Source: Myxococcota bacterium (GTDB lineage Bacteria; Myxococcota_A; UBA9160; UBA6930). Taken from it: a stretch of 30,829 nucleotides of DNA. Position numbers and translations under genes: made by a program. Below, piece after piece: positions 681-19,822 of the stretch. The notes beneath the pieces are model-generated. The model was not told the origin of the DNA. It ran no database searches and saw only the letters and a list, made by a program, of their open reading frames with translations. Numbering within the stretch: position 1 is the first letter of the stretch; each line of letters starts with the position of its first letter. The DNA lies in contig DATAGA010000195.1 in NCBI GenBank assembly GCA_036257215.1, positions 1-30,829 of the forward strand, in the 5' to 3' direction.

Positions 681-2710
681 GCGCGCGCGGCGCGGAAGGC
701 GCCGCGGAGGTCGCGAGTCCGCCCGGCCCGCTCGCGCCGCTGCGCGCGCGAGCGGTTCCGGCCGCGGCCGTGCTGCTGGCGCTGCTCTTCGCGCTCGCAG
801 TCGGGCTGCGGCTCCACGGCTTCTCGATCTCGATCTGGCGCGACTGGACCGACGGCTCGCCCGCCCACGAGCTCGTCCTCGGACGCCCACAGCCCGCCCG
901 CATCGACGACTACGCGGTGATCCTGCCGCTCGCGCTGGCGCAGGAGCGCCACCAGCCGCCCTTTCCCGTCGTGAACACGAACGTCGGGCAGGGTCACAAC
1001 ATGCTGCTGCCGTTCTCGCTCCCGGTGTGGCACCCCGTCGCGCTCTTCAAGCCCGACACGTGGGGCTTCTTCCTCGGCGCCGACGTCGGGATGGCGTGGC
1101 GCTGGTGGTCCCGGGCGCTCGGGCTCGCGGGCGCCGCCTGGCTGCTCCTGCTCGTCGTGACCGGCGGCGACCGCGCGCTCTCCGCCGCCGGTGCGCTGTT
1201 CCTGCTCGGCTCGCCCTTCTACCAGTTCTGGGCTCTCCGGCCGGCTCCCGTTACGATCCACGCCGCGCTGCTCGTGCTCGGCGCCCTCGCCGTCGCGTTC
1301 GCGCGGCGGCGCGCGGCGATCGTCCTCGGCGGGCTCCTGCTGGGCTACGCGGCGGTCGGCTTCGCGCTCGTGCTGTATCCGCCCTTCCAGGTGCCGCTCG
1401 CGACGCTGGCGCTGCTCCTCTTCGGGGCGCTGGTCTTCGTCCACCGGGGACACCTCGACCTGCGCGCGTGGCTCGGCTGGCGCGTCGCGGCCGCGCTCCT
1501 CGCCGCGCTCGTGGTCGCGGCCGGGGCCGCGCTCTTCCTCGGCGCGGCGGGCGACGCCTTCGAGACGATGCGCCACACGGTCTACCCGGGGAACCGCGTG
1601 TCGGTGGGCGGGAACCGCCCGGTCGCGGCGCTCTTCGCGGCCGACGTCGGCGTGCCGCTCCTCACGGACCGCTACGGGCCGCTGCTCAACGTCTGCGAAG
1701 CGGCCGGGTTCTGGCTGCTGTCGCCCGCGCTCGTCGCCGCCGCGCTCGCGCGCGCCGCGGCCGAGCGGCGGCGCCCCGACGCGCTCGTCGTCGCGCTCGC
1801 GGCGGCGTGGCTCGCGCTCGTCGCCCACGCCGCGGTCGGCATCCCGGCGTGGCTCGCGCGCGCGAGCGGGTGGAGCTACGTGCCGGGTCACCGCTCGGTG
1901 ATCGCGCTCGGCGTCGCCGAGGTGCTGCTGCTCGCGCGGCTCCTCGCGCGCCCGCTTCCGGTGAGGGGAGCCACGCGGGCGGGGCTCGCCCTCGCGTGGG
2001 GCGCCGCGATCGCGGCGTGCGGCGCAGCGCTCTCGACGCTGCTCGGGGGATTGCCGGCTGGCGGCGTCGCCGCGTTCGCCGCGGCGAACGCGGCGCTGGT
2101 CTGGCTCGCGCTCGCGCCGCGCCGGCCCTGGCACGCGCTCGCGGCCGCGGCGGCCGCCTCGTGGCTCGTGGCCGGCTGGTTCAACCCGCTCGTGCGCGGC
2201 GGCGCCGACGCGGTGCAGGGAAACGAGCTGGCGCGCGCGGTGCAGGAAATCGACGCGGCGAGCGGCGGCGACACGGTCTGGGTCGCGTTCGGCAACCTCG
2301 GCCTCGGCAACCTCTTTCGCGCCGTCGGCGTCCGTTCCGTGAACGGAGTCCAGCCCGTGCCGCAGCTCGAGCTCTGGCGCACGATCGACCCGGACGGCAG
2401 CGAGGAGGAGGCGTACAACCGCTACGCCCACGTCCTCTTCGGCGCGTCCGCCGACCCGGAGCCGCGCTTCGAGCACACGGCGCCGGACGCCTTCCGCATC
2501 TACGTCGACCCCACGTCGCCGGCGATGCAGAAGCTCGGCGTCACGCACCTCGTGATCGGCGCGCCGCAGGCGCGCCGGCTGGCCGAACGCGGCGGCGCGG
2601 TGTGGGTGCGCTCCGCGGGGCCCTATCACATCCTGCGCGAGCCCTGGGTCCCCGCCCCGCCGGGCGGCGCGGCGGCGGCCGCCGCACCCGCGCGCGAGCC
2701 CGCGCCGTGA
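677..2710 (+). CDS. Polytopic membrane protein, putative GT-C glycosyltransferase; start at CTG 677 or GTG 770
   Basis: Many hydrophobic helices, an acidic RIDDY motif in the first extracytoplasmic loop, TVYPGNR motif, soluble C-terminal domain. The frame is open from CTG 677, which overlaps the upstream TGA. Confidence 0.7.
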   Translation: MSARGAEGAAEVASPPGPLAPLRARAVPAAAVLLALLFALAVGLRLHGFSISIWRDWTDGSPAHELVLGRPQPARIDDYAVILPLALAQERHQPPFPVVNTNVGQGHNMLLPFSLPVWHPVALFKPDTWGFFLGADVGMAWRWWSRALGLAGAAWLLLLVVTGGDRALSAAGALFLLGSPFYQFWALRPAPVTIHAALLVLGALAVAFARRRAAIVLGGLLLGYAAVGFALVLYPPFQVPLATLALLLFGALVFVHRGHLDLRAWLGWRVAAALLAALVVAAGAALFLGAAGDAFETMRHTVYPGNRVSVGGNRPVAALFAADVGVPLLTDRYGPLLNVCEAAGFWLLSPALVAAALARAAAERRRPDALVVALAAAWLALVAHAAVGIPAWLARASGWSYVPGHRSVIALGVAEVLLLARLLARPLPVRGATRAGLALAWGAAIAACGAALSTLLGGLPAGGVAAFAAANAALVWLALAPRRPWHALAAAAAASWLVAGWFNPLVRGGADAVQGNELARAVQEIDAASGGDTVWVAFGNLGLGNLFRAVGVRSVNGVQPVPQLELWRTIDPDGSEEEAYNRYAHVLFGASADPEPRFEHTAPDAFRIYVDPTSPAMQKLGVTHLVIGAPQARRLAERGGAVWVRSAGPYHILREPWVPAPPGGAAAAAAPAREPAP

Positions 2711-4086
2711 GCGCCGGGCCCTTTGCGCGTCCGCTGGCGCTCGCGCTGCTCGCGCTCGCGCTCGGGGCCTGCAGACGGCACGAGCCGCAGGCGGACGTCG
2801 TGCTCCTCACCGTCGACACGCTGCGCGCCGACCGGCTCGGGCTCTACGGCTCCGGCCGCGGGCTCACGCCCGAGCTCGACCGCTGGTTCGCCGACGGGCT
2901 CGTCCACGAGCGCGCGTGGGCGTCGTCGGCGTCCACGTCGCCGAGCATCGTGACGCTGCTCTCCGGGCTCTACCCCGGTGAGCACGGCGTTCGGCTCCTC
3001 TACGAGCGGGTGCCCGCAGACGTACGGCTGCTGACGGACCACCTGCCCGACGCCTACCAGACGGCGGCCTTCGTCTCGAACGTCGTGCTCAGCGATCCGG
3101 CGCTCGGCATCGCGGACCGCTTCGACCACTACGACGACACCGTCGACGAGCGCGAGTCCGGCCGCGAGGTGTACGAGCGCCGCGCGTCGCGCACGACGGA
3201 CGCCGCGCTCGCGTGGGTCGAGAGCCGGGCGGAGCGCGACCGGCCGCTCTTCCTCTGGCTCCACTACATCGACCCGCACGGCCCCTATCGCGCGCCCGAC
3301 CCGTGGGCGGGCCGGCTGAGCCACCGCGGCAGCGTGCCGGTCCAGGGCGACCGGATCCTCGCGTACATGCGCCTCCCCGGCGTCGCGGACGCGCTCGAGT
3401 ACGTCGACCGCTACGACGAGGAGGTCGCCTACGTCGACGCCGAGATCGGCCGCCTGCTGCGCGCGCTCGAGGAGTCGCGCGGGCTCGAGCGCACCCTCGT
3501 CGCGTTCACCGCCGACCACGGCGAGACGCTGACGGAGCGGCGGCTGTGGTTCCGCCACGGCTGGCACGTGTACGAGGAGCTCGTGCGCGTGCCCCTCCTC
3601 CTGCGCGGCCCGGGCGTCGACAAGGGGCGCAGCGCCGCACCCGTCTCGGGCGTGGACGTCGCGCCTACGCTGCTGCGACACGCCGGCGTGACGCCGCCGC
3701 CCGGCTGGAGCGCGGTCGACCTGCGCCGGGCCGATGCCGCGCCGCCGCAGCGCGCGGTCTTCAGCGAGGCCACGCTCGCCGACGGCCGCTGGCTCGCGGC
3801 GCGGCGCGGCGGCGCGAAGGCGATGCTGCAGGTCGCGCCCGAGCGCCGCCTCGGCGCGAGCGTCGCCGTCGACCTCGCGCGCGACCCCGGCGAGGAGCCG
3901 CTCCGGCTCGCGGCCCCCGGCGACCCGCTCGTCGCCGAGCTCGCCGCGCGCGCCGCGCACGAGCCGCCGCTCGTCGCGGACGCCGCCGGCGCGCGCGACG
4001 GCCCGCGCCCGACGGGCGCGGACGTCGACCCGCGCGTGCGCGGCGAGGCGCTCGAGCAGCTGCGCCAGCTCGGCTACGTCGAGTAG
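2707..4086 (+). CDS. Sulfatase-fold (alkaline phosphatase superfamily) lipoprotein, 459 aa, with Thr at the formylglycine position
   Basis: GTGA overlap with the upstream stop; lipobox LGAC; VDTLRAD; STSPSIVTLLSG; HYIDPHGPY; TADHGE; C-terminal LRQLGYVE. This is the C-terminal part of track ORF 1027..4086. Confidence 0.85.
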   Translation: MSAGPFARPLALALLALALGACRRHEPQADVVLLTVDTLRADRLGLYGSGRGLTPELDRWFADGLVHERAWASSASTSPSIVTLLSGLYPGEHGVRLLYERVPADVRLLTDHLPDAYQTAAFVSNVVLSDPALGIADRFDHYDDTVDERESGREVYERRASRTTDAALAWVESRAERDRPLFLWLHYIDPHGPYRAPDPWAGRLSHRGSVPVQGDRILAYMRLPGVADALEYVDRYDEEVAYVDAEIGRLLRALEESRGLERTLVAFTADHGETLTERRLWFRHGWHVYEELVRVPLLLRGPGVDKGRSAAPVSGVDVAPTLLRHAGVTPPPGWSAVDLRRADAAPPQRAVFSEATLADGRWLAARRGGAKAMLQVAPERRLGASVAVDLARDPGEEPLRLAAPGDPLVAELAARAAHEPPLVADAAGARDGPRPTGADVDPRVRGEALEQLRQLGYVE

Positions 4087-4101: not shown

Positions 4102-5952
4102 TCAACCCGGCGGCGCAGCGTCCGTCGTCGCGGGTGGCGCGCCGGGGAGCGCCGTCGGCGCGGCGGTCCGCGCCGCCTCCGCGGGCCAGCTCACGCGGAA
4201 CACGCGCGCGTCGCGATAGCGCGGGCCGCGCGCGCCGAGGCGCGGCGGCGCGAACGGATGACCCAGCCCGGGGAAGCGATGCCAGAAGAGCTCCGGGCGG
4301 TTCTCCCACAGCGTCTCGGGCAGCTCGGCCACGAGCTCGAGCCGGGCCCCGCGCGCCGCGAGCCGGGCCCGCAGCGCCTCGAGCGGCTGGCCGAGCAGGA
4401 GGAACGGGTAGCCGAGGAAGGCCTCGTTGCCGCCGCGCCAGACGATCCAGTCGGCGTCGTCGACGTCGAAGACGTAGCGCGGCAGCTCCCGTCTGCGCGC
4501 GTGGGCGTAGACCGGCGCGGAGGGATCGATGCGCATGCCCAGCCCGAGGTCGCTGTAGTAGTAGAGGCCGTCCCAGCCGAAGTTCGTGAGCACGACGTCG
4601 TCCCGCGCGGCGCGCTCGCGCAGGAGACCGACGAGCGGATGCAGCGTTCCCGCGTCCGGCGCGCCGAGACCCCGCACGAAAGCCCACCACGGCACGTTGA
4701 AGAGCTTGGCGCCGAGGTCCCGCGGCACGGAGACGGCCACGCCTGCGAGCCGCCGGCTGTGACCGAGCGCGAGCCAGGGCAGGGCGCTCCCCGCCAGCTG
4801 CGTCGCGGCGAAGAGCGCGAGCACGGCTGCGTACGCCGCCGCACTCCTTCCGCTCGCGCGGGCGACGAGGACGCCGCTCACGGCGGCCGCGACCGGCAGC
4901 ATGCCGCACACGTAGCGGAGGCCCACGACCTCGAGCAGCGACGCGGACAGCGCGAGCGGCGCGAGCGCGGCGCAGGCGACGAGCCAGGCGGCGCAGAGCG
5001 CGAGCAGCGTGCGGTCGCCCGGCCCCAGGCGCCGCCGGACGAGCGGGAGCCCGATCGCCCAGCCGAGCGCGGGCACCGCGACGCTCGCCTCGGCGGCGAG
5101 CTGTCCGATCCGGCGCGGCCACTCCGCCGCGCTCCCGAGCGGCTCCCAGTTGACGCGCGTGCCCGACCAGGCGAGCAGCAGCCACGCCAGGGTCAGCGCC
5201 GCGACGAACGGGGCGCGCGCCAGGAGCGCGGGAAGCCGCGGGCGGAAGGCCGGGTGGAGCAGCGCCAGCCCGGCGCACGCGGCGAGCGCGACGGCGACGG
5301 GGAGGACCTGCACGTAGAAGAGGAGCACCGCGGCGACGGCGAGCCAGGGATCGCGCCGGCGTTCGCCGAGGCGCAGGAACCCGGCCAGGAGCACGACGGT
5401 CAGCAGCATGTTGGGGGCGTAGCTGCGCGCCTCGCGTCCGAACAGCAGGAACTGCGCGGAGGCGAGCAGCAGCAGCCCGGCGGCGAACGCCGCGCGGGCC
5501 GACCCGGTCGTGCGCAGGACGAGGCCGTAGAGCGCGGCCACCGTCGCGAGGGCCACGAGCGCAAAGGGAAGCCGCGCGGCCCACTCCGACTCGCCGAAAA
5601 GGGCGAAGCTCGCGGCCGCCACGTAGTAGGGAAGCCAGGGCGTCCCGACGAGCACGAAGTCGTGCCCGAGCGCGTGCGGCGCGACGCGCATGCCGTCGTC
5701 GCTGTCGACGAAGCTGCGCCCGTCCCACGCGGTCGGCAGCCCGTCGCGCACGATGGCCCGCGCGAACAGCGCGGTGTCGGCCTCGTCCTCCCACAGCCAG
5801 GGCCCGCCCAGGTCGGTGAACAGCAGCGCCGCCGCCGCGGCGAGCAGCACGAGGAGCGGAGCCAGCCGGCGAGCGCGATCGCCCGCAAGACCCACGGCGC
5901 CGCGCGCGTCCGGCGTTCGCGCGCCTGCGCCGCGCTGCGGATCCGAAGTCAC
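4102..5952 (-). CDS. ArnT/PMT-like GT-C glycosyltransferase, 616 aa
   Basis: LWEDEADTALFAR loop after TM1, GTPWLPYY, ARLPFAL, QFLLFGREARSYAPN, multiple TM helices and a soluble C-terminal domain. Confidence 0.85.
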   Translation of the reverse strand: MTSDPQRGAGARTPDARGAVGLAGDRARRLAPLLVLLAAAAALLFTDLGGPWLWEDEADTALFARAIVRDGLPTAWDGRSFVDSDDGMRVAPHALGHDFVLVGTPWLPYYVAAASFALFGESEWAARLPFALVALATVAALYGLVLRTTGSARAAFAAGLLLLASAQFLLFGREARSYAPNMLLTVVLLAGFLRLGERRRDPWLAVAAVLLFYVQVLPVAVALAACAGLALLHPAFRPRLPALLARAPFVAALTLAWLLLAWSGTRVNWEPLGSAAEWPRRIGQLAAEASVAVPALGWAIGLPLVRRRLGPGDRTLLALCAAWLVACAALAPLALSASLLEVVGLRYVCGMLPVAAAVSGVLVARASGRSAAAYAAVLALFAATQLAGSALPWLALGHSRRLAGVAVSVPRDLGAKLFNVPWWAFVRGLGAPDAGTLHPLVGLLRERAARDDVVLTNFGWDGLYYYSDLGLGMRIDPSAPVYAHARRRELPRYVFDVDDADWIVWRGGNEAFLGYPFLLLGQPLEALRARLAARGARLELVAELPETLWENRPELFWHRFPGLGHPFAPPRLGARGPRYRDARVFRVSWPAEAARTAAPTALPGAPPATTDAAPPG

Positions 5953-6035: not shown

Positions 6036-8384
6036 GTGCGTTCGAGGCCCGCGGACGTCGCCAGCGCGCTCGCCGGCTTCCTGCTCGCGGCGGTCCTGCT
6101 GGCGCCCTCGCTCTCGGGCCGCGCCGCGTTCCTTCCGGCCGACATCTGGATGCGGGCGGTCCCGTGGGCGTTCTCCGCGCCGCGCGAAGCGGCGCGCTTT
6201 CCCTCCAATCCGTACCTCTCCGACGAAGCGCTGCTCTACGCGCCGCAGCTCGCGTTCGTCCGCGAGAGCCTGCGCGCCGGAAGCTTTCCGCTCTGGAACC
6301 CGCGCTTTCGCTGCGGCGAGCCGCTGCTCGCGACGGCGGTGTCGAGCCCGCTCGCGCCGACGCAGTGGCCGGTGCTGCTGCTGCCGTGGCCCGACGGCTT
6401 CGCCTGGTCCGCGCTCGTGCGCTTCGGCCTCATGTGGGCGGGCGCGTACCTGCTGGGCCGGGAGCTCGGGCTCGCGCGCTCACTGGCGCTCGGGCTCGCG
6501 GTCTCGTTCACGTGGCTCCCGGCCTTCCTGCTGCACTTCCAGCAGCCACACGCGACCGTCGCCGTGTGGTGGCCGTGGATGATGCTGGCGATCGAGCGCT
6601 TCGCCCGCGCCGCGCGCGGCGACGCGCGGGCGCTGGTGCGCGCTGCGCTTCCCGTCGCGGCGGTCGAGCTCGCGGTGCTCGCCGCGACGCACGCGCAGGC
6701 AGCCTTCAACTTCGGCGTCGCGTCCGCTCTGTACCTGCTCCTCCGGCTCCCGCTGCGCCCGTGGCAGCTCGGCCTGCGGGCGCGCGCGCTGGGCGCGGGC
6801 GCGATGGGGCTGGGCCTCCTCGCCGGCGCGCCGCTCGTCGTGCCGTTCGCGGAGCACCTGCGCGAGTCCTCGACCGTCGTCGAGCGCAGCGCGATGGGGA
6901 CGGAGTGGATGCCGTCGCCGCGCGCGGCGGAGACGCTCTGGGACCCCCTCGCGCTCGGCGACGCGAGGCTCGGCAGCGTCTGGCGCGGCGCGCTCAACTT
7001 CGAGGAGGAGCAGCAGTACCTGGGCCTCCTGCCGTGGGTCTTCCTCGCCGGCGGCGCGCTCTCTCTCGCGCGCGGCGCGCGGCGCGAGGCCGGTCTCTTC
7101 GCGGCACTCCTCGGTGTCGGCCTCGTGTGCGGCTCGCTGGCGTACGGCTGGCCGCCTCTGCACGACTGGTTGGCGTCGCAGCCGCCCTTCTCGTGGAACC
7201 GCAACCCGCGCTTCCGCCTCTTCGTCGAGTGCAGCGCGCTCGTGCTCGCGTTCCTCGCGGCCCGCAATTGGCGGGGCTCGCTCGCGGCGCGCAGCCCGCG
7301 CCACGCGGCGCTCGCGCTGACTCTGCTCGCCGCCGCACTCGCGGCTGCGCTCCTCGGACTGGGCCTCGCGAGCCGTTTCGGGCCGCGCCCGCTGGTCGCG
7401 CTCGCGGCCGCGTGCGCGCTCTGGTTCGCCGGCGCGTTCGCCGCCGGCGCGCGCGAGCGCCGCCTCGTCGGCGCCCTGGTTCCGGCGCTGCTCCTCGCGG
7501 ACCTCGCGCCGGTCTACGCGGGCTACCACCCGCAGCCGCCGCGATCGTGGGCGGAGCTGGACCGCGCGGTGGCGGAGCTTCCGGCCGCGCTCCGCGAGGC
7601 GCGCCCGCTGCGGCTCGCGGCGCAGGACTTCTCGCCGCCCAACCTGCCCGCGCTGCTCGGCGCGGTCGACCCGACGGCGTACTCGCTGCCGGTGGCGGCG
7701 CGCAGCGACCTCTTCCAACGCCGGCTGCTCGGCCTCTCCGACCCCGATCGGCTGACGCGCGCCGACCTCGTCCGGCCCGACGTCGTGCGCGCGCTCGAGA
7801 CGACGTGCGCGGACTACCTGTGGACCAACGTCCCGCAGCAGGGCGGAGCGGCCGACGGGCTCGCACTGCTCGACGAGCGGCGCGGCCTGCGGCTCTACCA
7901 CCTCCGCGACGCGGCGCCCTGGGCGGCGTGGCACGCGAGCGCCGAGGTCGCGAGCGCGCCCGGCCTCGACGCCGCACTCGCGCGCCTCGTCGCGGCGCGA
8001 GGCGTGCGGCCCGAGCCGATCGTCGTCGAGGACGGCGCCGCGCGCGAGCCGGCGGCGACGGTACGCCCCGGCGAGCGAGCCGCCGCGATGCAGCGCTCGC
8101 CGCAGCGGATCGACGTGGAGCTGCCCGCGGCCGCCGCGTCCGGCGACGGCTGGCTGGTCGTGCGTACGAGCTTCGACCGCGGCTGGCGGGCGGAGTCGCG
8201 CGACGGCCGCGCGCTGCGCGTCGTGCCGGCGCAGCTGCGCTTCCTCGGCGTCGAAGTCCCGGCGGCGACGGAGGGGGTCGTGCTCCGCTACGCACCGCCG
8301 CACTTCGCGGCCGCGTGCGCGGCGTCGGCGGGCGCGCTCCTCCTCGCGGGGGCGGCCTTCGCGTGGACCCGGCGCCGCGCGTGA
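6036..8384 (+). CDS. YfhO-family GT-C membrane protein, 782 aa
   Basis: LSDEALLYAP...GSFPLWNPRFRCGEPLLA N-terminal signature and YfhO-like C-terminus (SFDRGWRA...LGVEVPA...VVLRYAP). TAAGGA lies 6 nt upstream. Confidence 0.8.
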   Translation: MRSRPADVASALAGFLLAAVLLAPSLSGRAAFLPADIWMRAVPWAFSAPREAARFPSNPYLSDEALLYAPQLAFVRESLRAGSFPLWNPRFRCGEPLLATAVSSPLAPTQWPVLLLPWPDGFAWSALVRFGLMWAGAYLLGRELGLARSLALGLAVSFTWLPAFLLHFQQPHATVAVWWPWMMLAIERFARAARGDARALVRAALPVAAVELAVLAATHAQAAFNFGVASALYLLLRLPLRPWQLGLRARALGAGAMGLGLLAGAPLVVPFAEHLRESSTVVERSAMGTEWMPSPRAAETLWDPLALGDARLGSVWRGALNFEEEQQYLGLLPWVFLAGGALSLARGARREAGLFAALLGVGLVCGSLAYGWPPLHDWLASQPPFSWNRNPRFRLFVECSALVLAFLAARNWRGSLAARSPRHAALALTLLAAALAAALLGLGLASRFGPRPLVALAAACALWFAGAFAAGARERRLVGALVPALLLADLAPVYAGYHPQPPRSWAELDRAVAELPAALREARPLRLAAQDFSPPNLPALLGAVDPTAYSLPVAARSDLFQRRLLGLSDPDRLTRADLVRPDVVRALETTCADYLWTNVPQQGGAADGLALLDERRGLRLYHLRDAAPWAAWHASAEVASAPGLDAALARLVAARGVRPEPIVVEDGAAREPAATVRPGERAAAMQRSPQRIDVELPAAAASGDGWLVVRTSFDRGWRAESRDGRALRVVPAQLRFLGVEVPAATEGVVLRYAPPHFAAACAASAGALLLAGAAFAWTRRRA

Positions 8385-10144
8385 GCGAGGCGCGCGCGCA
8401 CCCGTCCGCGCCGCCGGCGCAGGGCGCGGCAGCGGCGCCCGTCGCGGCCGCGCGCGCGGTGCGGCGCCGCGACGTCGCCCTGCTCCTCGCGCTCGCAGCC
8501 TTGCTCGTACTGCCGAACCTCGGCGGACCGCGACTGTGGTCGGACGAAGGCGACACCGCGGTGTTCGCCCGCACGATCCTCGCGCGCGGGCTGCCGTACG
8601 CGTGGGACGGCCGCACGTTCACCGAGAGCGATCGCGGGCGCCGGCTGAACGAGGACCTCCTCATGGTCGGGACGCCGTGGCTGCCGTACTACGCGACGGC
8701 CGCCTCGTTCGCCGCGCTCGGCGAGTCGGCGTTCTCCGCGCGCCTGCCCTTCGCGCTGTGCGCGGTGGCGGCGGTTGCGCTGCTCTACCTGCTCGTCGCG
8801 GACCTGACCCGCGACCGGCGCGCCGCGCTCGCCGCCGCGCTGCTCCTCCTCGCGTCCGTCCAGTTCCTGCTCTTCGCGCGCCAATCCCGCCACTACGCGC
8901 CCAACGCGCTCGGGACGCTCGCGGTGCTGTGGGGCTTCGCGCGCCTGCGCGTGCGGCCGCGCTCCCCGGTCTTCGCGGCCAGCTCCATCCTGCTCTTCCA
9001 CGTACACCCGCTGCCCGCTGCGGCGACGCTCGCCGGCTCCGCGTTCGCGGCGCTCGTCCACCCGGACTTCGCGCGGGCGCGCCGCCCCCTGCTCGCGTGG
9101 AGCGGGGCGATCGCGCTCGGCACGCTCCCCTGGCTCGCGATCGCGTGGACCGGCTGGGAGGAGAACTCGAGCGCCCTCGCGCGCGCGGGGGAGCTCCCCG
9201 TGCGGCTGGCGCAGGCAGGGGTCGAGGCGGCCGAGGCGGTGCCCCTCCTCGGCTGGCTCGCGCTCTTCCTCGCCGGGCGGCGGCGGCTCGCGCGCGGCGA
9301 CGGCGCCTTCCTCGCGCTCGCGCTGCCTTGCATCGCAGCGTTCGTCGCGCTGCTCGCGCTCGCGCTCTCGGTGGGCGAGCTCTTCGCGCTCGGGCTGCGT
9401 TACGCGGTCGGCGTCCTGCCGCTCGCCGCGGGCGTCACCGGCGTCCTCGCCGTGCGCGCGGCCGGGGCGAGCCGCTGGCGGCTGGCCGCGCTCCTCGCCC
9501 TCTTCGCCGCGACGCACGTGCCGGGCGCGACGGCGCTCTACCTCACGCTCGCGCGCGACTCGGCGCGCGACCAGACGGGTGTCCTCTTCCACGAGCCGAG
9601 GGGCGCCCTCGGGCCGTGGCTGAGAGTGGAATGGCTCGGCTATCCGCGCGAGCTCGTCGAGAGCGATCCGGGCACGGTCTCCCACGTCGTCGCGTACCTC
9701 GCGGAGCACGCGGAGCCGGAGGACATCCTCGTCACCAACTACGAGTGGGAGCCGCTCTACTTCCACACCCGCCTGCCCCAGGGCTACAAGGTGCTGCCCG
9801 ACTACGACCTCTACGAGGCCGCGCGCGCGCACGGGCTTCCCGACCACGCCTTCGACGCGGGCGCGGCGCGCTGGGTCGTGTGGCGGCCTCCCGCGGAGGG
9901 CTACCAGGGCTACCGCTTCGCCGACGTGCGCGCCGCGGTGGAGTCCCGCGGCCGGCGACTCGAGCCCGTCGCAACGGTCCCCGAGACGCTCTGGGAGAAC
10001 CGACCCGAGCTCCACTTCCACCGCTTCCCGGGCGTCCGTTACCTCTACCCGGTCGACGTCCTGCGCTCGGGCTACGGGCACGGCGGCCCCGCGCGGATCT
10101 ACCGCGTCGAGGCAGGAGCTCCTTCGCCTTCGCCGAGCCCCTGA
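8381..10144 (+). CDS. ArnT/PMT-like GT-C glycosyltransferase, 587 aa; paralog of 4102..5952
   Basis: GTGA overlap with the YfhO stop; LWSDEGDTAVFAR, GTPWLPYY, ARLPFAL, ETLWENRPEL. This is the C-terminal part of track ORF 5690..10144. Confidence 0.85.
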   Translation: MSEARAHPSAPPAQGAAAAPVAAARAVRRRDVALLLALAALLVLPNLGGPRLWSDEGDTAVFARTILARGLPYAWDGRTFTESDRGRRLNEDLLMVGTPWLPYYATAASFAALGESAFSARLPFALCAVAAVALLYLLVADLTRDRRAALAAALLLLASVQFLLFARQSRHYAPNALGTLAVLWGFARLRVRPRSPVFAASSILLFHVHPLPAAATLAGSAFAALVHPDFARARRPLLAWSGAIALGTLPWLAIAWTGWEENSSALARAGELPVRLAQAGVEAAEAVPLLGWLALFLAGRRRLARGDGAFLALALPCIAAFVALLALALSVGELFALGLRYAVGVLPLAAGVTGVLAVRAAGASRWRLAALLALFAATHVPGATALYLTLARDSARDQTGVLFHEPRGALGPWLRVEWLGYPRELVESDPGTVSHVVAYLAEHAEPEDILVTNYEWEPLYFHTRLPQGYKVLPDYDLYEAARAHGLPDHAFDAGAARWVVWRPPAEGYQGYRFADVRAAVESRGRRLEPVATVPETLWENRPELHFHRFPGVRYLYPVDVLRSGYGHGGPARIYRVEAGAPSPSPSP

Positions 10145-10548: not shown

Positions 10549-10554
10549 GCGGGT

Positions 10555-10560: not shown

Positions 10561-11239
10561 ATCGACGGGACTCGGCCCAGAGGGACATGAGCATCTTGTA
10601 GACGTAGTAGAAGTCGCGCGTGCCACCGTGCAGCGTCGAGGCGCGCGTGCTCTCGCGCATCCGCACGGGCACCTCGCGGATGCGAAGGCCCCGCCGCGCG
10701 GCCGCGACCAGCACGTCGACGTCGGGGTAGTCGGGCGGGAAGAAGGGCTCGCAGTAGAGCGCGAGCACGCGCCGGTTCATCGCCTGGAAGCCGGAGGTCG
10801 GGTCGCTCACCGCCACCCCGGCCAGCCGGCCGAGCCGGGCGAAGAGCTGCCGCCCGAGCGCCTTCACCGGCCCCATCCGGTAGTCCGACTTCTCGACGAA
10901 GCGCGAGCCGATCGCCAGGTCGCACTCGCCGCTCGCGACCGGCGCCGCCACGCGCGGGATCTCGGTAGGGTCGTGCTGGCCGTCGGCGTCGAGCTGGACG
11001 AGGAGCTCGGCGCCGCTGCGCAGCGCGTACTTGTAGAGCGTCTGGAGCGCCGCGCCGTAGCCGAGGTTGAACGGATGGCGCAGCACGCTCGCGCCGCAGC
11101 GCGCGGCCGCGTCGCCCGTCCCGTCGGCCGAACCGTCGTCGACGACGGCGATCTCGGCGCCGGGCGCCGCGCGCGCCACCGCCGCGAGGACCGCGGGGAG
11201 CCGCTCGGCCTCGTTGTATGCGGGCAGGCCGACGATCAC
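10559..11239 (-). CDS. GT2 glycosyltransferase, DPM1/PpgS-like polyprenyl-phosphate sugar synthase (226 aa; alternative start 11254)
   Basis: PAYNE, VVDDGS, NLGYGAA, QLDADGQH, IGSRF, DPTSGF, YPD motifs. GTG 11239 overlaps the methyltransferase TGA. Confidence 0.9.
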   Translation of the reverse strand: MIVGLPAYNEAERLPAVLAAVARAAPGAEIAVVDDGSADGTGDAAARCGASVLRHPFNLGYGAALQTLYKYALRSGAELLVQLDADGQHDPTEIPRVAAPVASGECDLAIGSRFVEKSDYRMGPVKALGRQLFARLGRLAGVAVSDPTSGFQAMNRRVLALYCEPFFPPDYPDVDVLVAAARRGLRIREVPVRMRESTRASTLHGGTRDFYYVYKMLMSLWAESRR

Positions 11240-11964
11240 GCCGGCCGCGACCACGCGACGGTGAGGTAGCGGTTGGTGAACCCGTATCGCAGCGTCGCCG
11301 CGAGCCGGCGCAGCGCCGCGCGCGGATGCATCGCGTAGTAGCGCAGCAGGTCGGGGCGCATGTCGGCGAGCCGCTCCTCGCGGCGCGCGAGCGTCGCGAA
11401 GAGCGGCACCGGCTGGACCTGGCGCAGCGACGCCTGCGCGGCGAGCCGGTGGGGTGCGAACAGCCGCCCGAACGAGCGCTCGGTGAAGTCGTGCAGGTGG
11501 TGGAGGTTGACGTCGGCCGAGGGCGTCGTCGGCGCCGAGGCGACGAGGACGCCGCCCGGGCGCAACAGCCCGACGAGGTGCGCCACGAGGCGCTCGGGGT
11601 CGGGCACGTGCTCGATGGTCTCGAGCGAGACGATCGTGTCGAAGCCGACGGGGTCCGCGAACGCGAGCCCGTCGGAGACGACGAACTCGACCCCGTCGCG
11701 CGCATAGTGGGTACGCGCGTAGGCCACCGCGTCGTCGGCCACGTCGACGCCGAGCGCGCGCTCGAGCGCGGGCGCGAGATCCGCGACCAGGCGCGTCCCG
11801 TAGCCGACGCCGCAGGCCAGGTCGAGCAGACGCCCGGGGCGCGCGTGTCGCGCGGCGAAGCGGTAGCGCTCGAGGTGGAGCTCGAGCGTCTGGCGCCCGG
11901 TGGCGTCGTCGCGAGCGAGCTCGGCGGGGACCAGGCGCTCGAGGCTCCGCGCGTCGACGGGCAT
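11236..11964 (-). CDS. Class I SAM-dependent methyltransferase, 242 aa
   Basis: HLERYRFA, motif [23 protein letters not shown] 11964 is preferred because the track's TTG 12000 is part of a -35 box. Confidence 0.9.
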
Positions 11965-11971
11965 CCGGCCG

Positions 11972-12000
11972 ATGCTACGCGCGAACCCCCGGGGGGTCAA
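11972..12000 (-). promoter_or_regulatory. Sigma70-type promoter TTGACC-N17-TAGCAT, 7 nt before ATG 11964
   Basis: Near-consensus boxes with an exact 17-nt spacer. Confidence 0.75.
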
Positions 12001-12050: not shown

Positions 12051-12758
12051 GTGACGGACCTCTCCTCGCTCACGCTCTCCGTCGTGGTCCCGTGCTTCAA
12101 CGAGGTCGCGACGCTCGAGCGCGTCGTGGACGCGGTGCGCGCGGCGCCCGTCCCGCGCAAGGAGATCATCCTCGTCGACGACGGCTCCACCGACGGCACT
12201 CGCGAGCTGATCCGCGAGAAGCTCGCCGACCGCGTGGACCGCGTCGTGCTGCACGAGCGCAACCAGGGCAAGGGCGCCGCGCTGCGCACCGGCTTCCGCG
12301 CAGCGACGGGGGACGTCGTCATCGTGCAGGACGCCGACCTCGAGTACGACCCGTCCGAGTACGCGAAGCTCCTGCGCCCCTTCGTCGAGAAGGGTGCCGA
12401 CGTCGTCTTCGGCTCGCGCTTCATCGGCGGCGAGTCCCACCGGGTGCTCTATTACTGGCACTACGTCGGCAACCGCCTCCTCACCACCCTCTCGAACGTC
12501 TTCACGAACCTGAACCTCACGGACATGGAGGTCTGCTACAAGCTCTTCCGCCGCGAGGTGCTCCAGCGCATCGAGCTCGAAGAGGACCGCTTCGGCTTCG
12601 AGCCCGAGATCACGGCCAAGGTGGCGAAGCTCCACTGCACGGTCTACGAGGTCGGCATCTCGTACTCGGGCCGCACCTACGCCGAAGGCAAGAAGATCGG
12701 CTGGCGCGACGGGCTCCGCGCGCTGTGGTGCATTCTCAAGTACAACGTGCTGCGTTGA
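12051..12758 (+). CDS. GT2 glycosyltransferase, DPM1-like polyprenyl-phosphate glycosyltransferase, 235 aa
   Basis: [69 protein letters not shown]. Confidence 0.92.
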
Positions 12759-15053: not shown

Positions 15054-15061
15054 CTGCCGCC

Positions 15062-16399
15062 ATGCGACGGCTGGCCGTGCTCGCCCTGCTCGTCGGTGCG
15101 GCGGCGGCCGGTGCCTGGCTCGCGTGCGCAGCGCGCGAGCGCCCGCGCAACCTCGTTTTGCTCTCGATCGACACGCTCCGGCGCGACCGGCTCGGCGCGT
15201 ATGGCTACGACCGCCCGACCTCGCCGGTCCTCGACGCGCTCGCGGCGCGCGGCGTCGTGTTCGAGGGCGCGAGCGCGCCGAGCTCGTGGACCGTGCCCTC
15301 CCACGGCTCGCTCCTCACCGGCCTCTCGCCGCAGGCGCACGGCGCGACCGGCGCCGTCCAGCGCCTCGACCCGCGGGCCGAGACGCTCGCGGGCTGGCTG
15401 CGCCAGCACGGCTACGCCACCGCGGCCGTGGTCAACACGGTGCTGCTCAGCGCGAAGCGGGGCTTCGCCGGCGGCTTCGACCACTTCGAGCTCGTGCTCG
15501 GCCCCGAGCCCGCCGCGCCCGAGATCCACGCGCGCGCGCTGCGCTGGCTCGACGGCGCGCGCGAGCGGCGGCCGTTCTTCCTCTTCCTCCACTACTACGA
15601 CGTGCACAGCGACTATGCGCCCGCTCCGGCGTACCGCGAGCTCCTGGTCTCGCCGTATCGCGGCCCCGCGGACGGGACGACGGAGCAGCTCAAGGCGGCG
15701 CGGCTCGGCAGGCTGTCGCTCGCTCCGGACGACGCGCGCCACCTCTCCGAGCTCTACGACGCGGAGATCCGCCAGCTGGACGACGAGCTCGGCCGCTTCT
15801 TCGCGGCGCTCGAAGAGCGCGGGCTCCTCGCGGACACCGCGATCGTCGTGACGTCGGACCACGGCGAGGAGTTCGGCGAGCACGGCGGCGTGCTGCACGG
15901 GCGGACGCTCTACGGCGAGCTCGTGGACGTGCCCCTCATCCTGGCCGGCCCGGGCGTGCCGGCCGGCCGGCGCGTCTCGGGGCCCGCGTCGCTGCTCGAC
16001 GTCTTCCCGACCGTGACGGCGCTGCTCGGGGTCCCCGCGCCGCCCTATGTGGAGGGCACCGATCTCTGGTCGGACGGAGCGCTGCGCCCGCCCGCGGCGC
16101 GCCCGCTCTTCTTCGCTACCGACTGGTGGCTCGGGCGCGCGGACGGCGAGTGGAAGCGCGCGGTCGAGCGCGATGGCTGGAAGCTCCACGTCGCGCACCC
16201 CGGGGCCGCCGCCGAGCTCTACGACCTCGGCGCCGACCCCGGCGAGCGGCGCAACGTCGCGGCCGACGAGCCCGCGCGCGTCGAGGCGCTGCGCGGCTTG
16301 CTCGCGCCGCTCCTCGGTCCGGCGCGCGGCGGCGCCGAGGGGCCGAAGCTCAGCGCGGAGGAGACGGAGGCGCTCCGGAGCCTCGGCTACCTCGAGTGA
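15062..16399 (+). CDS. Sulfatase-fold exported protein, 445 aa, with Thr at the formylglycine position
   Basis: Signal peptide (possible lipobox WLAC), IDTLRRD, SSWTVPSHGSLLTG, HYYDVHSDY, TSDHGEEF, LYDLGADPGE, LRSLGYLE. Confidence 0.88.
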   Translation: MRRLAVLALLVGAAAAGAWLACAARERPRNLVLLSIDTLRRDRLGAYGYDRPTSPVLDALAARGVVFEGASAPSSWTVPSHGSLLTGLSPQAHGATGAVQRLDPRAETLAGWLRQHGYATAAVVNTVLLSAKRGFAGGFDHFELVLGPEPAAPEIHARALRWLDGARERRPFFLFLHYYDVHSDYAPAPAYRELLVSPYRGPADGTTEQLKAARLGRLSLAPDDARHLSELYDAEIRQLDDELGRFFAALEERGLLADTAIVVTSDHGEEFGEHGGVLHGRTLYGELVDVPLILAGPGVPAGRRVSGPASLLDVFPTVTALLGVPAPPYVEGTDLWSDGALRPPAARPLFFATDWWLGRADGEWKRAVERDGWKLHVAHPGAAAELYDLGADPGERRNVAADEPARVEALRGLLAPLLGPARGGAEGPKLSAEETEALRSLGYLE

Positions 16400-18374
16400 C
16401 GCACGGGAGCGCGGCGCCCGCGGCGGTGCCCCGGCGGGCGAGCGCGTCGATGCCGAAGCGCGAGCCCGGACGCAAGGGCGGGTCGCCGAAGCGCTCCACC
16501 TCGTCGTAGCGGTCGCGCAGCCACGCGCCGAGCTGCCGGGCGTAGTCGCGCCCGAACCAGCGCAGCCCGTACTCGCTCGTGTCCTTGTGCACCAGGAAGA
16601 CGAGGTCCGGCGGGTGGGCCTGGAACGCCGAGAGGATGCGGGCCTCCTCGAAGAGGATGATCTCCGGCGGCATGAAGTTGAAGTACGGGGTCGGGTTGCG
16701 CGAGCGCGAGAGGTAGTTGAGCGTCACACCCTCGGGCAGCACCGCGAGCGTCGGCTTGTCGGCGCCCGGAGCGGCGCAGCCCTCGAGCCACGCGAGCGCC
16801 GCGTTCACCGTCGCGCCGCGCGCGTCGGCGAGGAAGCGGTCGCGCCCGTTGCCCATCTCGATCGTCTTGCCCGCGTGCATGCGCGCCGTCTGCACGAGCG
16901 CGATGCCGGCGAAGGCGGCGAGCGCCGTGGCCACCCCGGCGCGCGCCACGGCCGCGCTGCCGCCGCGCCGCGCCACCCCGGCGGGCCACGCGTCCCAAGC
17001 GAGCGCGGCGACGAGCGCCGTCGCGGGGAGGCCCAACGCGAAGCCGTAGTGGTAGAGCCGGGCGTTGAGGAGCATCTTGCCCGTCATCGCGAGGGCGAAC
17101 GCGGAGAAGGCGGCCGCGGCGATCCAGCGCGGCGCATCCGGTCCGCTCGAGGCGCGCCGCGCCGCGACGACGAACGCGACCCCCGCGAAGAGCGGCCACG
17201 CGCGCGGGGCCTGGAGCCAGCGCCCGTCGCCGTAGAGCGCAGCGCCGATGAGCCCCGTCCCCACCACCGCGGCGGCAATCCACCACGGGGACGCTCCAGC
17301 CGCGGAAGCCGCGGCGACGGCGCTGGAGCTTCGTGGACCCCGCACGAGGAGGGCGAGCGTGGCGGCTGGAGCCAGCGCAGCGATCGCCCAGAGCGCCCAG
17401 CGCAGCATCGACGCGACGTTCGCGAGCGGGCGGTCGAGGCCCATGCTCGTCAGGTAGAAGCGCTGCTGCGAGACGTCCGTCGCTGCGAGCTGCGGCCACG
17501 CCCCGAGCGTCGCGCTCCATGCGCCCGCCGCGCCGAGCGACTCGCGCAGGAGCAGCCACGACGCGCCGACGGGAACGAGCGCCCCGAGCGCCAGCGCCAC
17601 GCCGGCCGCGACCAGCCGGCGCGAGCGCAGCCCCGCGAGCCCGACCGCGACGAGGGCGCCCGCCGCGGCCGCGATGAACATCTCGGGCTTCGTCAGGAAC
17701 GCGAGCCCGACGAAGGCCCCGCTCGCGAACGCCCAGGCCGGCCGCCCCGCGACGGCGAAGCGGTGCGCCGCGGCGAGCGCCGCGAGCCCGAGCAGCACGC
17801 CGTGCGTCGCCTCGTGCGAGTAGGGCGTCGCGAAGTTGTAGTTGCCGATGAAGAGCAGCTGCGCGAAGCCGCAGACGCAGAGGACGACGAGGCAGGCGAG
17901 CGTCGCCGCGGTGGTCGACGCGAAGCTGCGCAGCTGCGCGTGGAGCAGCGCGAGGAGGAGCGCGAAGAGCGCGAGATCCACGGCGACGAGGGTCGAGATC
18001 CCGACGCCGAAGAGACGGAACACGAGCAGGTTCCAGCTCGGGCTCAGCGGCCCGTTGAACCAGGAGAGGTCGCCGAAGAGCCGCTCGCCCTCGAGCATCC
18101 GCCACGGCACGTAGAGCTCGCGGCCGTAGTCCACGACGACGTCGGGCCAGCGCCCCTCGGTCCAGGCGTAGAGCGCGGCGAAGGCGGCCGCGAGCACCGC
18201 GGCGTGCAGCCAGGCCGGCGGACCCTGCGCCGTGCAGACGGCCGCGGCCGCGCGCGCGCCCGCGTCCCGCGAAGCGGCTTCGGCCGGCACGCCCGCAGCG
18301 GCGCGGCGCCCGGCCGTGGGCTGCGCGCCGCTCGCAGCATCGCGACCGGGGGCGGGCGGCGCATCCGCGCTCAC
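16350..18374 (-). CDS. Putative GT-C glycosyltransferase, polytopic membrane protein, 674 aa
   Basis: GTGA overlap with the sulfatase stop; VVDYGRELYVPWRMLEGERLFGDLSWFNGP loop after TM1; many TM helices; soluble C-terminus (LPEGVTLNYL...NPTPY). This is the C-terminal part of track ORF 16350..19751. Confidence 0.75.
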   Translation of the reverse strand: MSADAPPAPGRDAASGAQPTAGRRAAAGVPAEAASRDAGARAAAAVCTAQGPPAWLHAAVLAAAFAALYAWTEGRWPDVVVDYGRELYVPWRMLEGERLFGDLSWFNGPLSPSWNLLVFRLFGVGISTLVAVDLALFALLLALLHAQLRSFASTTAATLACLVVLCVCGFAQLLFIGNYNFATPYSHEATHGVLLGLAALAAAHRFAVAGRPAWAFASGAFVGLAFLTKPEMFIAAAAGALVAVGLAGLRSRRLVAAGVALALGALVPVGASWLLLRESLGAAGAWSATLGAWPQLAATDVSQQRFYLTSMGLDRPLANVASMLRWALWAIAALAPAATLALLVRGPRSSSAVAAASAAGASPWWIAAAVVGTGLIGAALYGDGRWLQAPRAWPLFAGVAFVVAARRASSGPDAPRWIAAAAFSAFALAMTGKMLLNARLYHYGFALGLPATALVAALAWDAWPAGVARRGGSAAVARAGVATALAAFAGIALVQTARMHAGKTIEMGNGRDRFLADARGATVNAALAWLEGCAAPGADKPTLAVLPEGVTLNYLSRSRNPTPYFNFMPPEIILFEEARILSAFQAHPPDLVFLVHKDTSEYGLRWFGRDYARQLGAWLRDRYDEVERFGDPPLRPGSRFGIDALARRGTAAGAALPCVTRGSRGSGAPPSPPR

Positions 18375-19822
18375 TTGTCGCGGGCTCCGTCGAGGTAGCC
18401 GAGCTGCTCGAGCCGCCGGCGCGTCTCGTCGTCGACGGCCGTCTCGCGCGCGCCGCCGCCGAGCTCGCGCCGGCGCGCGAGCGCCGCCGCGCGCGCCCGA
18501 TCGAGCGACGCGAAGGCGGCGTCGACGCGCGCGTCGTCGCGGCGGCGCAGCGGCACGCGCTCGCCCGGATCGACCCGCAGGTCGTAGCCGACCTCCGCGG
18601 GGGGGCGCCCACGGCGCCCGCGCCGCGCGTAGGCCTTCAGCTCGCGCGTGCGCAGCGCCCGCTGGTCGCGGCCGTCGGCGTAGAGCTCGAGCAGCGCGTC
18701 CTGCGGCGCGAGCGGCTCGCCCCGAGCGAGCGGGAGGACGTCGCGGCCGTCGACGCCGGCCGGCGCAGGGACCCCGGCGGCGGCGAGCAGCGTCGGCGCG
18801 AGGTCCACGAGCCGCACCTGATCGGGCACCACGCGTCCCGCCGGAAGCCGCCCGGGCCAGTGCAGGACCAGCGGGACGCGCACGACCTCGTCGAAGAGCG
18901 TCTTCTGGTGGCCCTTGCGGCCGTGCTCGAAGAACTCCTCGCCGTGGTCGGCCGTGACGACGACCAGCGCGTCGCCGAGCAGCCCGCGCGCGCGCAGGTC
19001 GTCGAGCAGCCGGCCGAGCACGTCGTCGGTGAAGCGGATCTCGCCGTCGTACAGCGCGACCAGGTGCTCGAGGTCGCGGCGGTCCATGCGGCGGTTCACC
19101 GCCAGGTTCCCCATGAAGTCGACGCCGGTCAGCGTTCCGCGGTAGTCCGGGTCGAACAGGCGGTCGTACGGCGGCGGCGGGATGAAGTCGTAGTGCACGT
19201 CCCAGAGGTGGACGAAGAGGAAGAACGGCCGCTCGCGCGGCTGGCGCTCGGCCCAACGCGCCACGCGCTCGAGCGTTCGGGGCCCGGTGACGTCGCCGTG
19301 CGAGCGCGCGCGCGGCGCGCGCGACTCCGCGCGCAGCTCGGCGTCCGAGAGCTCGCCCGGCACCGCCGTCATGCAGCTCTCCCACACCTCGAAGCCGTCC
19401 GAGAGGCCGAACGTCGGATGGAGGTAGGGGCCGCCGTAGAAGCCCGCGGTGTGGTAGCCCGCGCGGGCGAGCGTCTCCGCGAGCGTCGTGAGCTCGGGCG
19501 CGAGCCGGAGCCCGTTGTCCACGAGCCCATGCGTCGAGTCGTAGAGCCCGGTGAAGAGCGCGGCGTGCGCCGGGAGGGTCCACGAGGTCGTGCTCACCGC
19601 GGACTCGAAGCGCGCGCCCTCGCGCGCGAGCCGGTCGAAGGTCGGGCTCGTCTCGCGCGGGTAGCCGTACGCGTGGAGGTGGTCGGCGCGCAAGCTGTCG
19701 ACGGAGACGAGCACCAGGTTCGGCGGGCGCGCCCGGGCCGGCTCGCGGCACGCGAGCGGCGCGGCCGCGGCGAGAGCGGCGGCGGCCAGGCCCCAGAATG
19801 CGCGCCGACCCGTGCGCCGCAT
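18371..19822 (-). CDS. Sulfatase-fold lipoprotein, 483 aa, with Thr at the formylglycine position and a possible Tat signal
   Basis: MRRTGRRAFW...PLAC leader, VDSLRAD, TSWTLPAHAALFTG, HLWDVHYD, TADHGEEF, LEQLGYLD; TAGGAG upstream. Confidence 0.88.
   Translation of the reverse strand: MRRTGRRAFWGLAAAALAAAAPLACREPARARPPNLVLVSVDSLRADHLHAYGYPRETSPTFDRLAREGARFESAVSTTSWTLPAHAALFTGLYDSTHGLVDNGLRLAPELTTLAETLARAGYHTAGFYGGPYLHPTFGLSDGFEVWESCMTAVPGELSDAELRAESRAPRARSHGDVTGPRTLERVARWAERQPRERPFFLFVHLWDVHYDFIPPPPYDRLFDPDYRGTLTGVDFMGNLAVNRRMDRRDLEHLVALYDGEIRFTDDVLGRLLDDLRARGLLGDALVVVTADHGEEFFEHGRKGHQKTLFDEVVRVPLVLHWPGRLPAGRVVPDQVRLVDLAPTLLAAAGVPAPAGVDGRDVLPLARGEPLAPQDALLELYADGRDQRALRTRELKAYARRGRRGRPPAEVGYDLRVDPGERVPLRRRDDARVDAAFASLDRARAAALARRRELGGGARETAVDDETRRRLEQLGYLDGARDK

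Follow-up and report, generated by a model that had tools for sequence, protein, structure and literature searches.

What does a sulfatase-fold protein do when threonine occupies the position at which sulfatases carry the Cys or Ser that becomes formylglycine (FGly)? The question is raised by a 30,829-nt stretch of DNA from a Myxococcota bacterium (assembly GCA_036257215.1, contig DATAGA010000195.1), referred to below at its full length as the window. It encodes three such proteins, here called Sulf1, Sulf2 and Sulf3, in the company of genes for GT-C membrane glycosyltransferases. An initial annotation of the window held that the three are not sulfatases, and offered phosphodiesterases, phosphoform transferases or editors acting on a glycan in their place. 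Our analysis agrees that they are not FGly sulfatases. It also suggests that Sulf1-3 are probably periplasmic metallo-enzymes that carry out phosphoryl transfer with a Thr nucleophile and work with GT-C enzymes on an envelope glycoconjugate.

The nucleophile position of Sulf1-3

All three proteins match the Pfam Sulfatase family PF00884, with E-values from 1e-44 to 5e-48. Sulf1 (459 aa; 2707..4086, plus strand) belongs to a subfamily with the signature STSPS[VI] and Sulf3 (483 aa; 18371..19822, minus strand) to one with WTLP[AS]H, while Sulf2 is a protein of 445 aa encoded at 15062..16399 on the plus strand. The site of the sulfatase motif (C/S)xPxR is occupied by TSPSI in Sulf1 (2935..2949, plus strand; ACG Thr codon 2935-2937), by TVPSH in Sulf2 (15290..15304, plus strand; ACC Thr codon 15290-15292) and by TLPAH in Sulf3 (19565..19579, minus strand; ACC Thr codon 19579-19577). 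In HMMER/phmmer and profile alignments to solved sulfatases the Thr falls on the FGly Cys/Ser, the Pro on the Pro and the His on the motif Arg, the last position being His in Sulf2 and Sulf3 and Ile in Sulf1. Thr at the FGly site and absence of the motif Arg had been reported in the initial annotation, and the exact coordinates and the alignments agree with it.

The metal ligands, described there as intact, are complete in each protein, with the first Asp lying within V/I-D-S/T-L-R and a D-H-G-E further downstream. The sulfate-binding G-K-W-H of sulfatases (Lys-x-His) aligns to G-P-Y and their distal Lys to Gln or Gly; of ten classical S1 sulfatase residues, the metal binders and one His are retained and the sulfate binders are all replaced. 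No (C/S)x(P/A)xR motif is found near the active site of Sulf1-3, and the adjacent Ser residues are not spaced from the Pro as that motif requires. All three proteins score above the Pfam cut-off of 23 bits for the nucleotide pyrophosphatase/phosphodiesterase (NPP) family PF01663 (45.4, 64.6 and 66.2 bits). Numbered along each protein, the key residues are D37, T77, I81, H186, D189, H191, D270, H271 and H284 in Sulf1, D37, T77, H81, H177, D180, H182, D266, H267 and H279 in Sulf2, and D42, T82, H86, H205, D208, H210, D292, H293 and H305 in Sulf3.

Each protein also has L-G-Y-(L/V) a few residues before its stop, as LGYV 455-458 in Sulf1, LGYL 441-444 in Sulf2 and LGYL 474-477 in Sulf3 (positions 4074-4086, 16385-16396 and 18383-18394 of the window). 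At the other end, the N-termini consist of a basic and hydrophobic signal sequence that ends at a conserved Cys, and Sulf1-3 are by these signals exported and probably lipid-anchored.

The initial annotation had found no FGly-generating enzyme in the window, and a search with the Pfam model of this enzyme (PF03781) likewise gives no match on the contig. It does match on three other contigs of the same genome. The organism can therefore probably mature its few canonical sulfatases.

Conservation, fold and remote homology

Is the Thr a family trait or a sign of gene decay? Of the 120 closest relatives of Sulf3 in the database, at identities down to 50%, 117 have T-x-P-x-H and nearly all read S-W-T-L-P-[AS]-H; T-x-P-x-H is found in most representatives of 50%-identity clusters too. 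Sulf1 has a distinct subfamily, S-T-S-P-S-[VI], in which about 95 of 120 homologues show TxPS[VI]; HxxDxH, DHGE...H and the LGY tail are present in every member. When genomes were scanned, one per species, at least 594 loci came back, all of them in uncultured members of Planctomycetota, Myxococcota, Acidobacteriota, Binatota, Eisenbacteria, Fermentibacteria and other phyla. Thr occupies the site in 80 of the 80 loci retained, a figure with some ascertainment bias, as one of the three search patterns contained the Thr motif itself.

The same picture is seen within a single genome. The window comes from a 3.2-Mb metagenome-assembled genome (MAG), 75% complete, with 15 PF00884 genes, 12 of them of the Thr type. 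In Sulf3 numbering, the 12 paralogues have in common D42, S/T43, T82, H98, H205, D208, H210, D292, H293, H305 and G475-Y476. The two Cys-type paralogues in the alignment have instead D-D, C, R86, A205, N293 and K306, the last being the sulfatase Lys, and end without a GY tail; a further Cys-type gene (L021) reads C-C-P-S-R. Since the Thr-type and Cys-type paralogues carry distinct covarying residue sets, two functional classes appear to coexist in this genome, each with a coherent set of its own. With the Thr and the residues that accompany it conserved throughout the family, the sequences indicate a site conserved by design and argue against decay. The conclusion that Sulf1-3 are not FGly sulfatases is well supported, in that the Cys/Ser, the Arg, the Lys-x-His and the Lys are all replaced and the replacement is conserved across hundreds of relatives.

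Two further features of the family were observed. The L-G-Y-(L/V/A) tail is invariant in the Thr-type paralogues and in both subfamilies across phyla, and it is absent from Cys-type sulfatases; docking, oligomerisation and sorting are candidate roles for it. In the MAG, the Thr-type PF00884 family (12 members, versus 2-3 of the Cys type) and the PMT_2 family of GT-C enzymes, with at least 21 matches, are both unusually expanded.

The fold of Sulf3 was predicted with AlphaFold2 at high confidence (predicted local distance difference test, pLDDT, 93.8; predicted template modelling score 0.90). In the model, T82 opens helix 82-91 after strand 70-76, D42 closes strand 35-41, and D292-H293 follow strand 285-291, which would be the canonical arrangement of nucleophile and ligands in the alkaline-phosphatase superfamily. 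The top 50 PDB matches and the top 30 Swiss-Prot matches in Foldseek are all S1 sulfatases or phosphonate monoester hydrolases (PMH), at template modelling (TM) scores of 0.68-0.72, and none of EptA, LtaS or NPP is among these top structural matches. Sequence searches give the same neighbours. In NCBIfam, PDB and AlphaFold-DB it is arylsulfatases, choline sulfatase and PehA/PMH that match best, and S1 sulfatases and PMH (PDB 7stt, 4upi, 4uph and 2vqr; PRK13759 and PehA) are matched at 1e-29 with phmmer and at 5e-57 with a family profile. With these enzymes the Sulf proteins have in common the two-subdomain fold, the first Asp, a D-H pair as in PMH and a His equivalent to His229 of arylsulfatase A (ASA); in Sulf3 the position 21 residues after the nucleophile (+21) is moreover an Asn, which we take to be a PMH feature. 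They differ in that the nucleophile is Thr and not FGly, in the replacement of the Arg, the Lys-x-His and the distal Lys, and in the addition of the invariant H205, D208 and H305 and of the C-terminal LGY tail. All NCBIfam scores lie far below the family cut-offs. The PehA model, for example, gives 77-128 bits against a cut-off of 900, and the D-H pair that is present in PehA is here combined with a Thr nucleophile.

When the catalytic residues are considered by themselves, a different relative appears. An hhalign comparison of the family profile with the phosphoethanolamine transferase EptA of E. coli (probability 84%, E 7e-6) places D42 on the metal-binding Glu, T82 on the nucleophile Thr, H205 and H210 on the H-x4-H pair, D292-H293 on the D-H pair and H305 on the distal His. 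We take the corresponding residues of MCR-1 to be E246, T285, H390/H395, D465/H466 and H478, and the spacing from the D-H pair to the distal His, 13 residues, is presumably identical there. The zinc and catalytic residues of EptA thus all align, and the Thr nucleophile is common to EptA/MCR-1 and, more loosely, to LtaS, OpgB and the ethanolamine-phosphate (EtNP) transferases of glycosylphosphatidylinositol (GPI) synthesis. The similarity is remote, with the NCBIfam models for EptA, MCR and CptA scoring 15-41 bits (E ~1e-6) against cut-offs of 400-1250. Unlike EptA and MCR, Sulf1-3 lack an N-terminal five-helix membrane domain, having only a signal peptide and Cys, and they carry a C-terminal subdomain of the sulfatase type (SGSH_C). 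With NPP (PF01663) there is a common local motif, T-x-P-x-H-x4-T-G-x5-H-G, around the Thr nucleophile, Sulf1 being without the +4 His. The match is mainly N-terminal; in overall fold and in their C-terminal half the proteins resemble sulfatases, and the ligand spacing of the second site of NPP is not reproduced. H205, D208, H210 and H305 are conserved candidate ligands for a bimetallo Zn site.

The likeness to LtaS, EptA and NPP drawn in the initial annotation therefore needs qualification: the EptA residues do align, and both the sequence and the fold bring the proteins much nearer to S1 sulfatases and PMH. On the residue alignments and the Sulf3 model, the Sulf family would have a body of the sulfatase/PMH type fitted with a catalytic set of the EptA/NPP type.

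Gene coupling, fusions and neighbourhoods

Two of the three genes were initially described as overlapping a GT-C gene through GTGA. Both overlaps are real. At 18374-18371 the Sulf3 stop codon shares bases with the GTG that starts a GT-C membrane protein gene (16387..18374, minus strand, 662 aa), whose PMT_2 match of 6e-5 is just under the Pfam cut-off; in a Foldseek search with its AlphaFold2 model (pLDDT only 67), ranks 1-22 are all GT-C proteins (AglB, ArnT, STT3, AftA, PglB). At 2707-2710 the GTG start of Sulf1 overlaps the TGA of the gene at 770..2710 (plus strand). Here the description of the partner does not hold in full. The gene encodes a polytopic membrane protein with 11-12 hydrophobic segments that matches DUF7657 and DUF7654 (Pfam, 1e-91 and 1e-26), and a Pfam scan recognises no GT-C family in it, although its Atlas model resembles GT-C proteins of the YfhO family (TM 0.74). 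Sulf2 has no start/stop overlap; its 3' end overlaps that of the 16387-18374 GT-C gene by 13 nt, tail to tail. A third GTGA lies at 8381-8384, between the stop of a gene for a YfhO-like polytopic membrane protein (6036..8384, plus strand; weak Pfam YfhO match) and the GTG start, at 8381, of a PMT_2-type GT-C membrane glycosyltransferase gene (8381..10144, plus strand; Pfam PMT_2 6e-8). Because this pair overlaps in the same manner, GTGA coupling is a general habit of the cluster and is not special to the sulfatase-like genes.

The coupling is retained in related genomes. A syntenic operon in locus L005 (77% identity) comprises DUF3604/PHP, a 788-aa protein, GDSL, PDZ, Sulf3 and GT-C genes, with tight or overlapping junctions and the same 4-nt overlap. 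In a Planctomycetaceae MAG (L026, 58% identity) the Sulf gene and the orthologous GT-C gene overlap by ATGA. The Sulf1 orthologue in L106 keeps its 4-nt overlap with the DUF7657 gene, and a second pair follows, a Sulf gene and then a membrane protein gene, again with a 4-nt overlap. In L024 Sulf, PMT_2, GT2 and PMT_2 genes are consecutive. The L005 locus also has GT2, methyltransferase, GT2, DUF2304 and DUF7657 genes, among them a methyltransferase/GT2/DUF2304 trio, and in L107 and L108 the Sulf1-like genes lie amid genes for GT2, methyltransferase, WbqC, DegT, GDSL, PMT_2 and UDP-glucose dehydrogenase. GDSL genes adjoin the relatives in L005, L106 and L107. These neighbourhoods, with GT2, methyltransferase, GlmS/GlmU, DegT, UDP-glucose dehydrogenase and GDSL, are biosynthetic. 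As a side observation, Sulf2 is absent from the otherwise syntenic L005, where uvrD directly follows the GT-C gene; standing alone in the paralogue tree, Sulf2 looks like a lineage-specific insertion.

Over 80 loci, an open reading frame (ORF) with at least seven hydrophobic segments, here called polytopic, lies within 1.5 kb of the gene in 23. Such ORFs number 0.119 per kb close to the gene against 0.044 per kb at greater distance, a 2.7-fold difference, and among the polytopic neighbours are seven PMT_2 proteins (three close relatives included), two of the YfhO family, a Wzy_C protein and a Polysacc_synt flippase. The association is frequent and not universal; L023, for example, has no such neighbour.

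In some relatives the partners are one protein. In P0186 a PMT_2 GT-C protein is fused to a Thr domain, which comes after the last GT-C helix, and in a Sandaracinaceae MAG and a Fermentibacteria MAG (L093:4285-7416 and L101:4195-7383) fusions of about 1050 aa join an MprF-type LPG_synthase_TM domain, a lipid flippase, to the Thr domain. In a maximum-likelihood tree of the catalytic domains of Thr-type and Cys-type proteins and of E. coli EptA, OpgB and YejM, the GT-C fusion and a membrane-anchored form fall inside the Sulf3 clade with 100/100 support. BLASTP of the membrane N-termini of fused relatives against the membrane proteins of the window gave no match. The fusions and the coupling suggest that the Thr domain sits at the outer face of the cytoplasmic membrane, beside machinery for lipid-linked substrates. 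A complex prediction for the 16387-18374 GT-C protein and tail residues 448-483 of Sulf3 scored 0.02, which gives no answer either way. Binding of the LGY tail by the PDZ protein encoded next to Sulf3 was considered as a general explanation of the tail and rejected, since the tail is conserved in paralogues and phyla without an adjacent PDZ gene.

The genes of the window, which has a G+C content of about 77%, were called with a frame plot of third-position G+C and translation and then checked against Pfam. Another PMT_2-type GT-C membrane glycosyltransferase is encoded at 4102..5952 (minus strand; Pfam PMT_2 2.6e-9). A minus-strand operon at 10099..12000 contains, by Pfam, a methyltransferase (11236-12000), a GT2 (10559-11254) and a DUF2304 protein (10099-10626); its product is probably a polyprenyl-phosphate-sugar donor. 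A GT2 glycosyltransferase gene (12051..12758, plus strand; Pfam Glycos_transf_2 1e-39) comes next, and then uvrD, whose longest ORF (12787-15174, minus strand) overlaps the start of Sulf2 by 113 nt (15062-15174). As the UvrD helicase domain begins only at residue 79, the true uvrD start is probably further downstream than that of the longest ORF. Sulf3 is in one operon with a gene for a PDZ-domain protein 14 nt upstream (19837..20703, minus strand; Pfam PDZ_6 and PDZ_2), and the operon also includes a gene for a GDSL/SGNH-like protein (20708..21943, minus strand) with a weak Lipase_GDSL_2 match of 1.4e-4, below the Pfam cut-off. A 730-aa protein without a Pfam match is encoded at 22032-24224 (minus strand). 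The long minus-strand operon as a whole covers 16387-26293 and runs through DUF3604/PHP-like, 730-aa protein, GDSL-like, PDZ, Sulf3 and GT-C genes. Pfam also places glmS, glmU and hflX within the window. At its very start lies a partial ORF (3-680, plus strand) whose end weakly resembles a PEP-CTERM motif (E 0.002, under the Pfam cut-off); its product may be an exosortase substrate adjoining the glycan cluster.

Proposed function and alternative explanations

The residues, conservation, fold, coupling and fusions described above suggest a mechanism in which the chemistry, metal content, substrate and any physical complex of Sulf1-3 would be as follows. With the first Asp and the D-H pair as its ligands, a metal would activate the Thr (T77, T77 and T82 in Sulf1, 2 and 3), which, at the N-terminus of the active-site helix, would attack a phosphoester to give a covalent phospho-Thr intermediate, while a second site made of HxxDxH and the distal His would stabilise the leaving group. 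Resolution of the intermediate by a glycan hydroxyl would transfer a phospho-substituent, for example phosphoethanolamine or phosphoglycerol; resolution by water would make the enzyme a phosphodiesterase or a phosphatase. Sulf1-3 would work on the outer side of the cytoplasmic membrane alongside the translationally coupled GT-C glycosyltransferases, as EptA acts at the outer face of the membrane in the modification of an envelope glycoconjugate. Their target would be a lipid-linked or envelope glycoconjugate built from the polyprenyl-phosphate sugars that the neighbouring GT2/DUF2304 genes may supply. The phosphodiesterase, phosphoform transferase or editor functions put forward initially are thus favoured, by the alignment to EptA and by the PF01663 scores, as what the sequences suggest.

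Between the two outcomes the choice is close. EptA-type residues, biosynthetic operons and the flippase and GT-C fusions favour transfer, and hydrolysis is favoured by the lack of a membrane domain in the window proteins, by the poorly conserved anchor of their relatives and by the hydrolytic activity of all the nearest characterised relatives. In view of the biosynthetic context and the EptA-like catalytic set, we lean slightly towards transfer, that is, decoration.

Several observations weigh against phosphoryl transfer in partnership with GT-C enzymes. By both sequence and fold the nearest characterised proteins are the hydrolytic S1 sulfatases and PMHs, and not EptA, LtaS or NPP, and our literature search found no characterised member of the Thr-type family itself. 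To our knowledge all lipid-donor phosphotransferases have a membrane domain, which Sulf1-3 lack. About 45 of 147 representatives do have an N-terminal anchor of four to six helices, in which Pfam finds nothing significant; since the alignment of these helices has no invariant column, they look like a mere anchor, judging by sequence. Only about 30% of the sampled loci have an adjacent GT-C gene. Nor do all members have the His at +4, which is replaced by Ile in Sulf1 and by F, A or T elsewhere among the paralogues. In the maximum-likelihood tree the deep nodes are not resolved and long branches attract, so that the origin of the Thr clade relative to FGly sulfatases is not placed. Finally, there are sulfatase-fold proteins, encoded in an archaeal GT-C (AglB) cluster, that have a role in sulfation (PMC11980604).

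These archaeal proteins, absent from the options of the initial annotation, give the alternatives their most serious member, genuine though weaker than the main reading. Agl30 and Agl31 (Q9HQQ3 and Q9HQQ2) of Halobacterium salinarum are sulfatase-fold N-glycan sulfotransferases encoded in the AglB cluster; they are required for N-glycan sulfation and sufficient for sulfation in Haloferax, Agl31 being cytosolic and Agl30 acting on dolichol-phosphate-bound glycan (PMC11980604). Like the Sulf proteins they have a sulfatase fold, are encoded beside a GT-C gene in a glycan-assembly cluster, and decorate a glycan and do not degrade it. Sulf1-3 could by analogy bind sulfate covalently, taking it from an activated donor, and then transfer it to a glycan of the GT-C pathway, and an ATP sulfurylase is encoded on another contig of the same genome. 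Agl30 and Agl31, however, add sulfate at the cytoplasmic side, whereas Sulf1-3 carry export signals and the fused relatives place the domain in the periplasm, where 3'-phosphoadenosine 5'-phosphosulfate (PAPS) and adenosine 5'-phosphosulfate (APS) are not available. The window has no PAPS genes, the only APS-kinase match of the genome is marginal, and the conserved residues match the zinc site of EptA. Export away from PAPS, the want of sulfate-activation genes nearby and a zinc site of the phosphoryl type lead us to give this explanation a low probability. True sulfatases, using the Thr directly or an unrecognised maturation, might be argued for from the fold, from the best sequence matches, which are S1 sulfatases, and from the FGly-generating-enzyme-like genes elsewhere in the genome. 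We regard them as highly improbable: there is no (C/S)x(P/A)xR near the site, with the neighbouring Ser out of register with the Pro, and none of the sulfate-binding Arg, Lys-x-His and Lys is retained, while Cys-type paralogues in the same genome keep the Arg and the Lys. The authors of SulfAtlas, moreover, stated in 2016 that PF00884 holds many sequences with Thr for Cys, that Thr cannot give FGly and that these are not sulfatases (PMC5066984).

The Sulf proteins might also be without catalytic activity, serving as a scaffold or sensor that binds a glycolipid or a GT-C enzyme without turnover, as proposed for the periplasmic domain of YejM/PbgA. Weak matches to YejM models (E 1e-5 to 2e-8), the conserved C-terminal LGY tail and the many paralogues per genome would fit such a role. 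The nucleophile and the set of metal ligands are, however, invariant over distant phyla and over 12 paralogues, as is typical of active enzymes, and a pseudoenzyme seems to us quite improbable.

Phosphoryl transfer beside GT-C enzymes remains our preferred reading, and it invites a larger speculation. In GPI synthesis, GT-C mannosyltransferases alternate with EtNP transferases. The Thr enzymes and their GT-C partners might form a widespread, hitherto undescribed bacterial system of the same kind, a prokaryotic counterpart in which each sugar that a GT-C enzyme adds to a lipid-linked envelope glycan is followed by the dedicated transfer of a phospho-substituent and the LGY tail serves as a docking element; 12 Thr enzymes and at least 21 PMT_2 GT-C enzymes would then encode a combinatorial code of glycan decoration. 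We think this rather unlikely, and offer it as a conjecture.

The general point that PF00884 proteins bearing Thr are not FGly sulfatases is already known, having been published in 2016 (PMC5066984). For the Thr-type family described here, with EptA-type residues on an S1/PMH scaffold, our literature search found no description, and none of its invariant LGY tail, of its expansion to 12 copies in a small genome that also has at least 21 PMT_2 genes, or of the way it is coupled and fused to GT-C and flippase domains. Two leads from the search were discarded: the Mn-dependent arylsulfatase EfAS is no precedent, as it uses Cys, and "PhoY" yielded only regulators of the PhoU type.

Many database proteins named "sulfatase" or "arylsulfatase A-like" from Planctomycetota, Myxococcota, Acidobacteriota and candidate phyla belong to the Thr-type group. 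Because such proteins are counted as sulfatases, the degradation of sulfated polysaccharides is overestimated. The family is also a natural case for studying switches of chemistry within the alkaline-phosphatase superfamily. ArnT-type GT-C enzymes are the functional neighbours of EptA in the modification of lipid A, a process that governs resistance to cationic peptides. If the Thr-type proteins are indeed phosphoryl-transfer enzymes coupled to GT-C enzymes, they would mark an unstudied pathway for the modification of envelope glycans or lipids, with a logic comparable to that of lipid A modification by EptA and ArnT.

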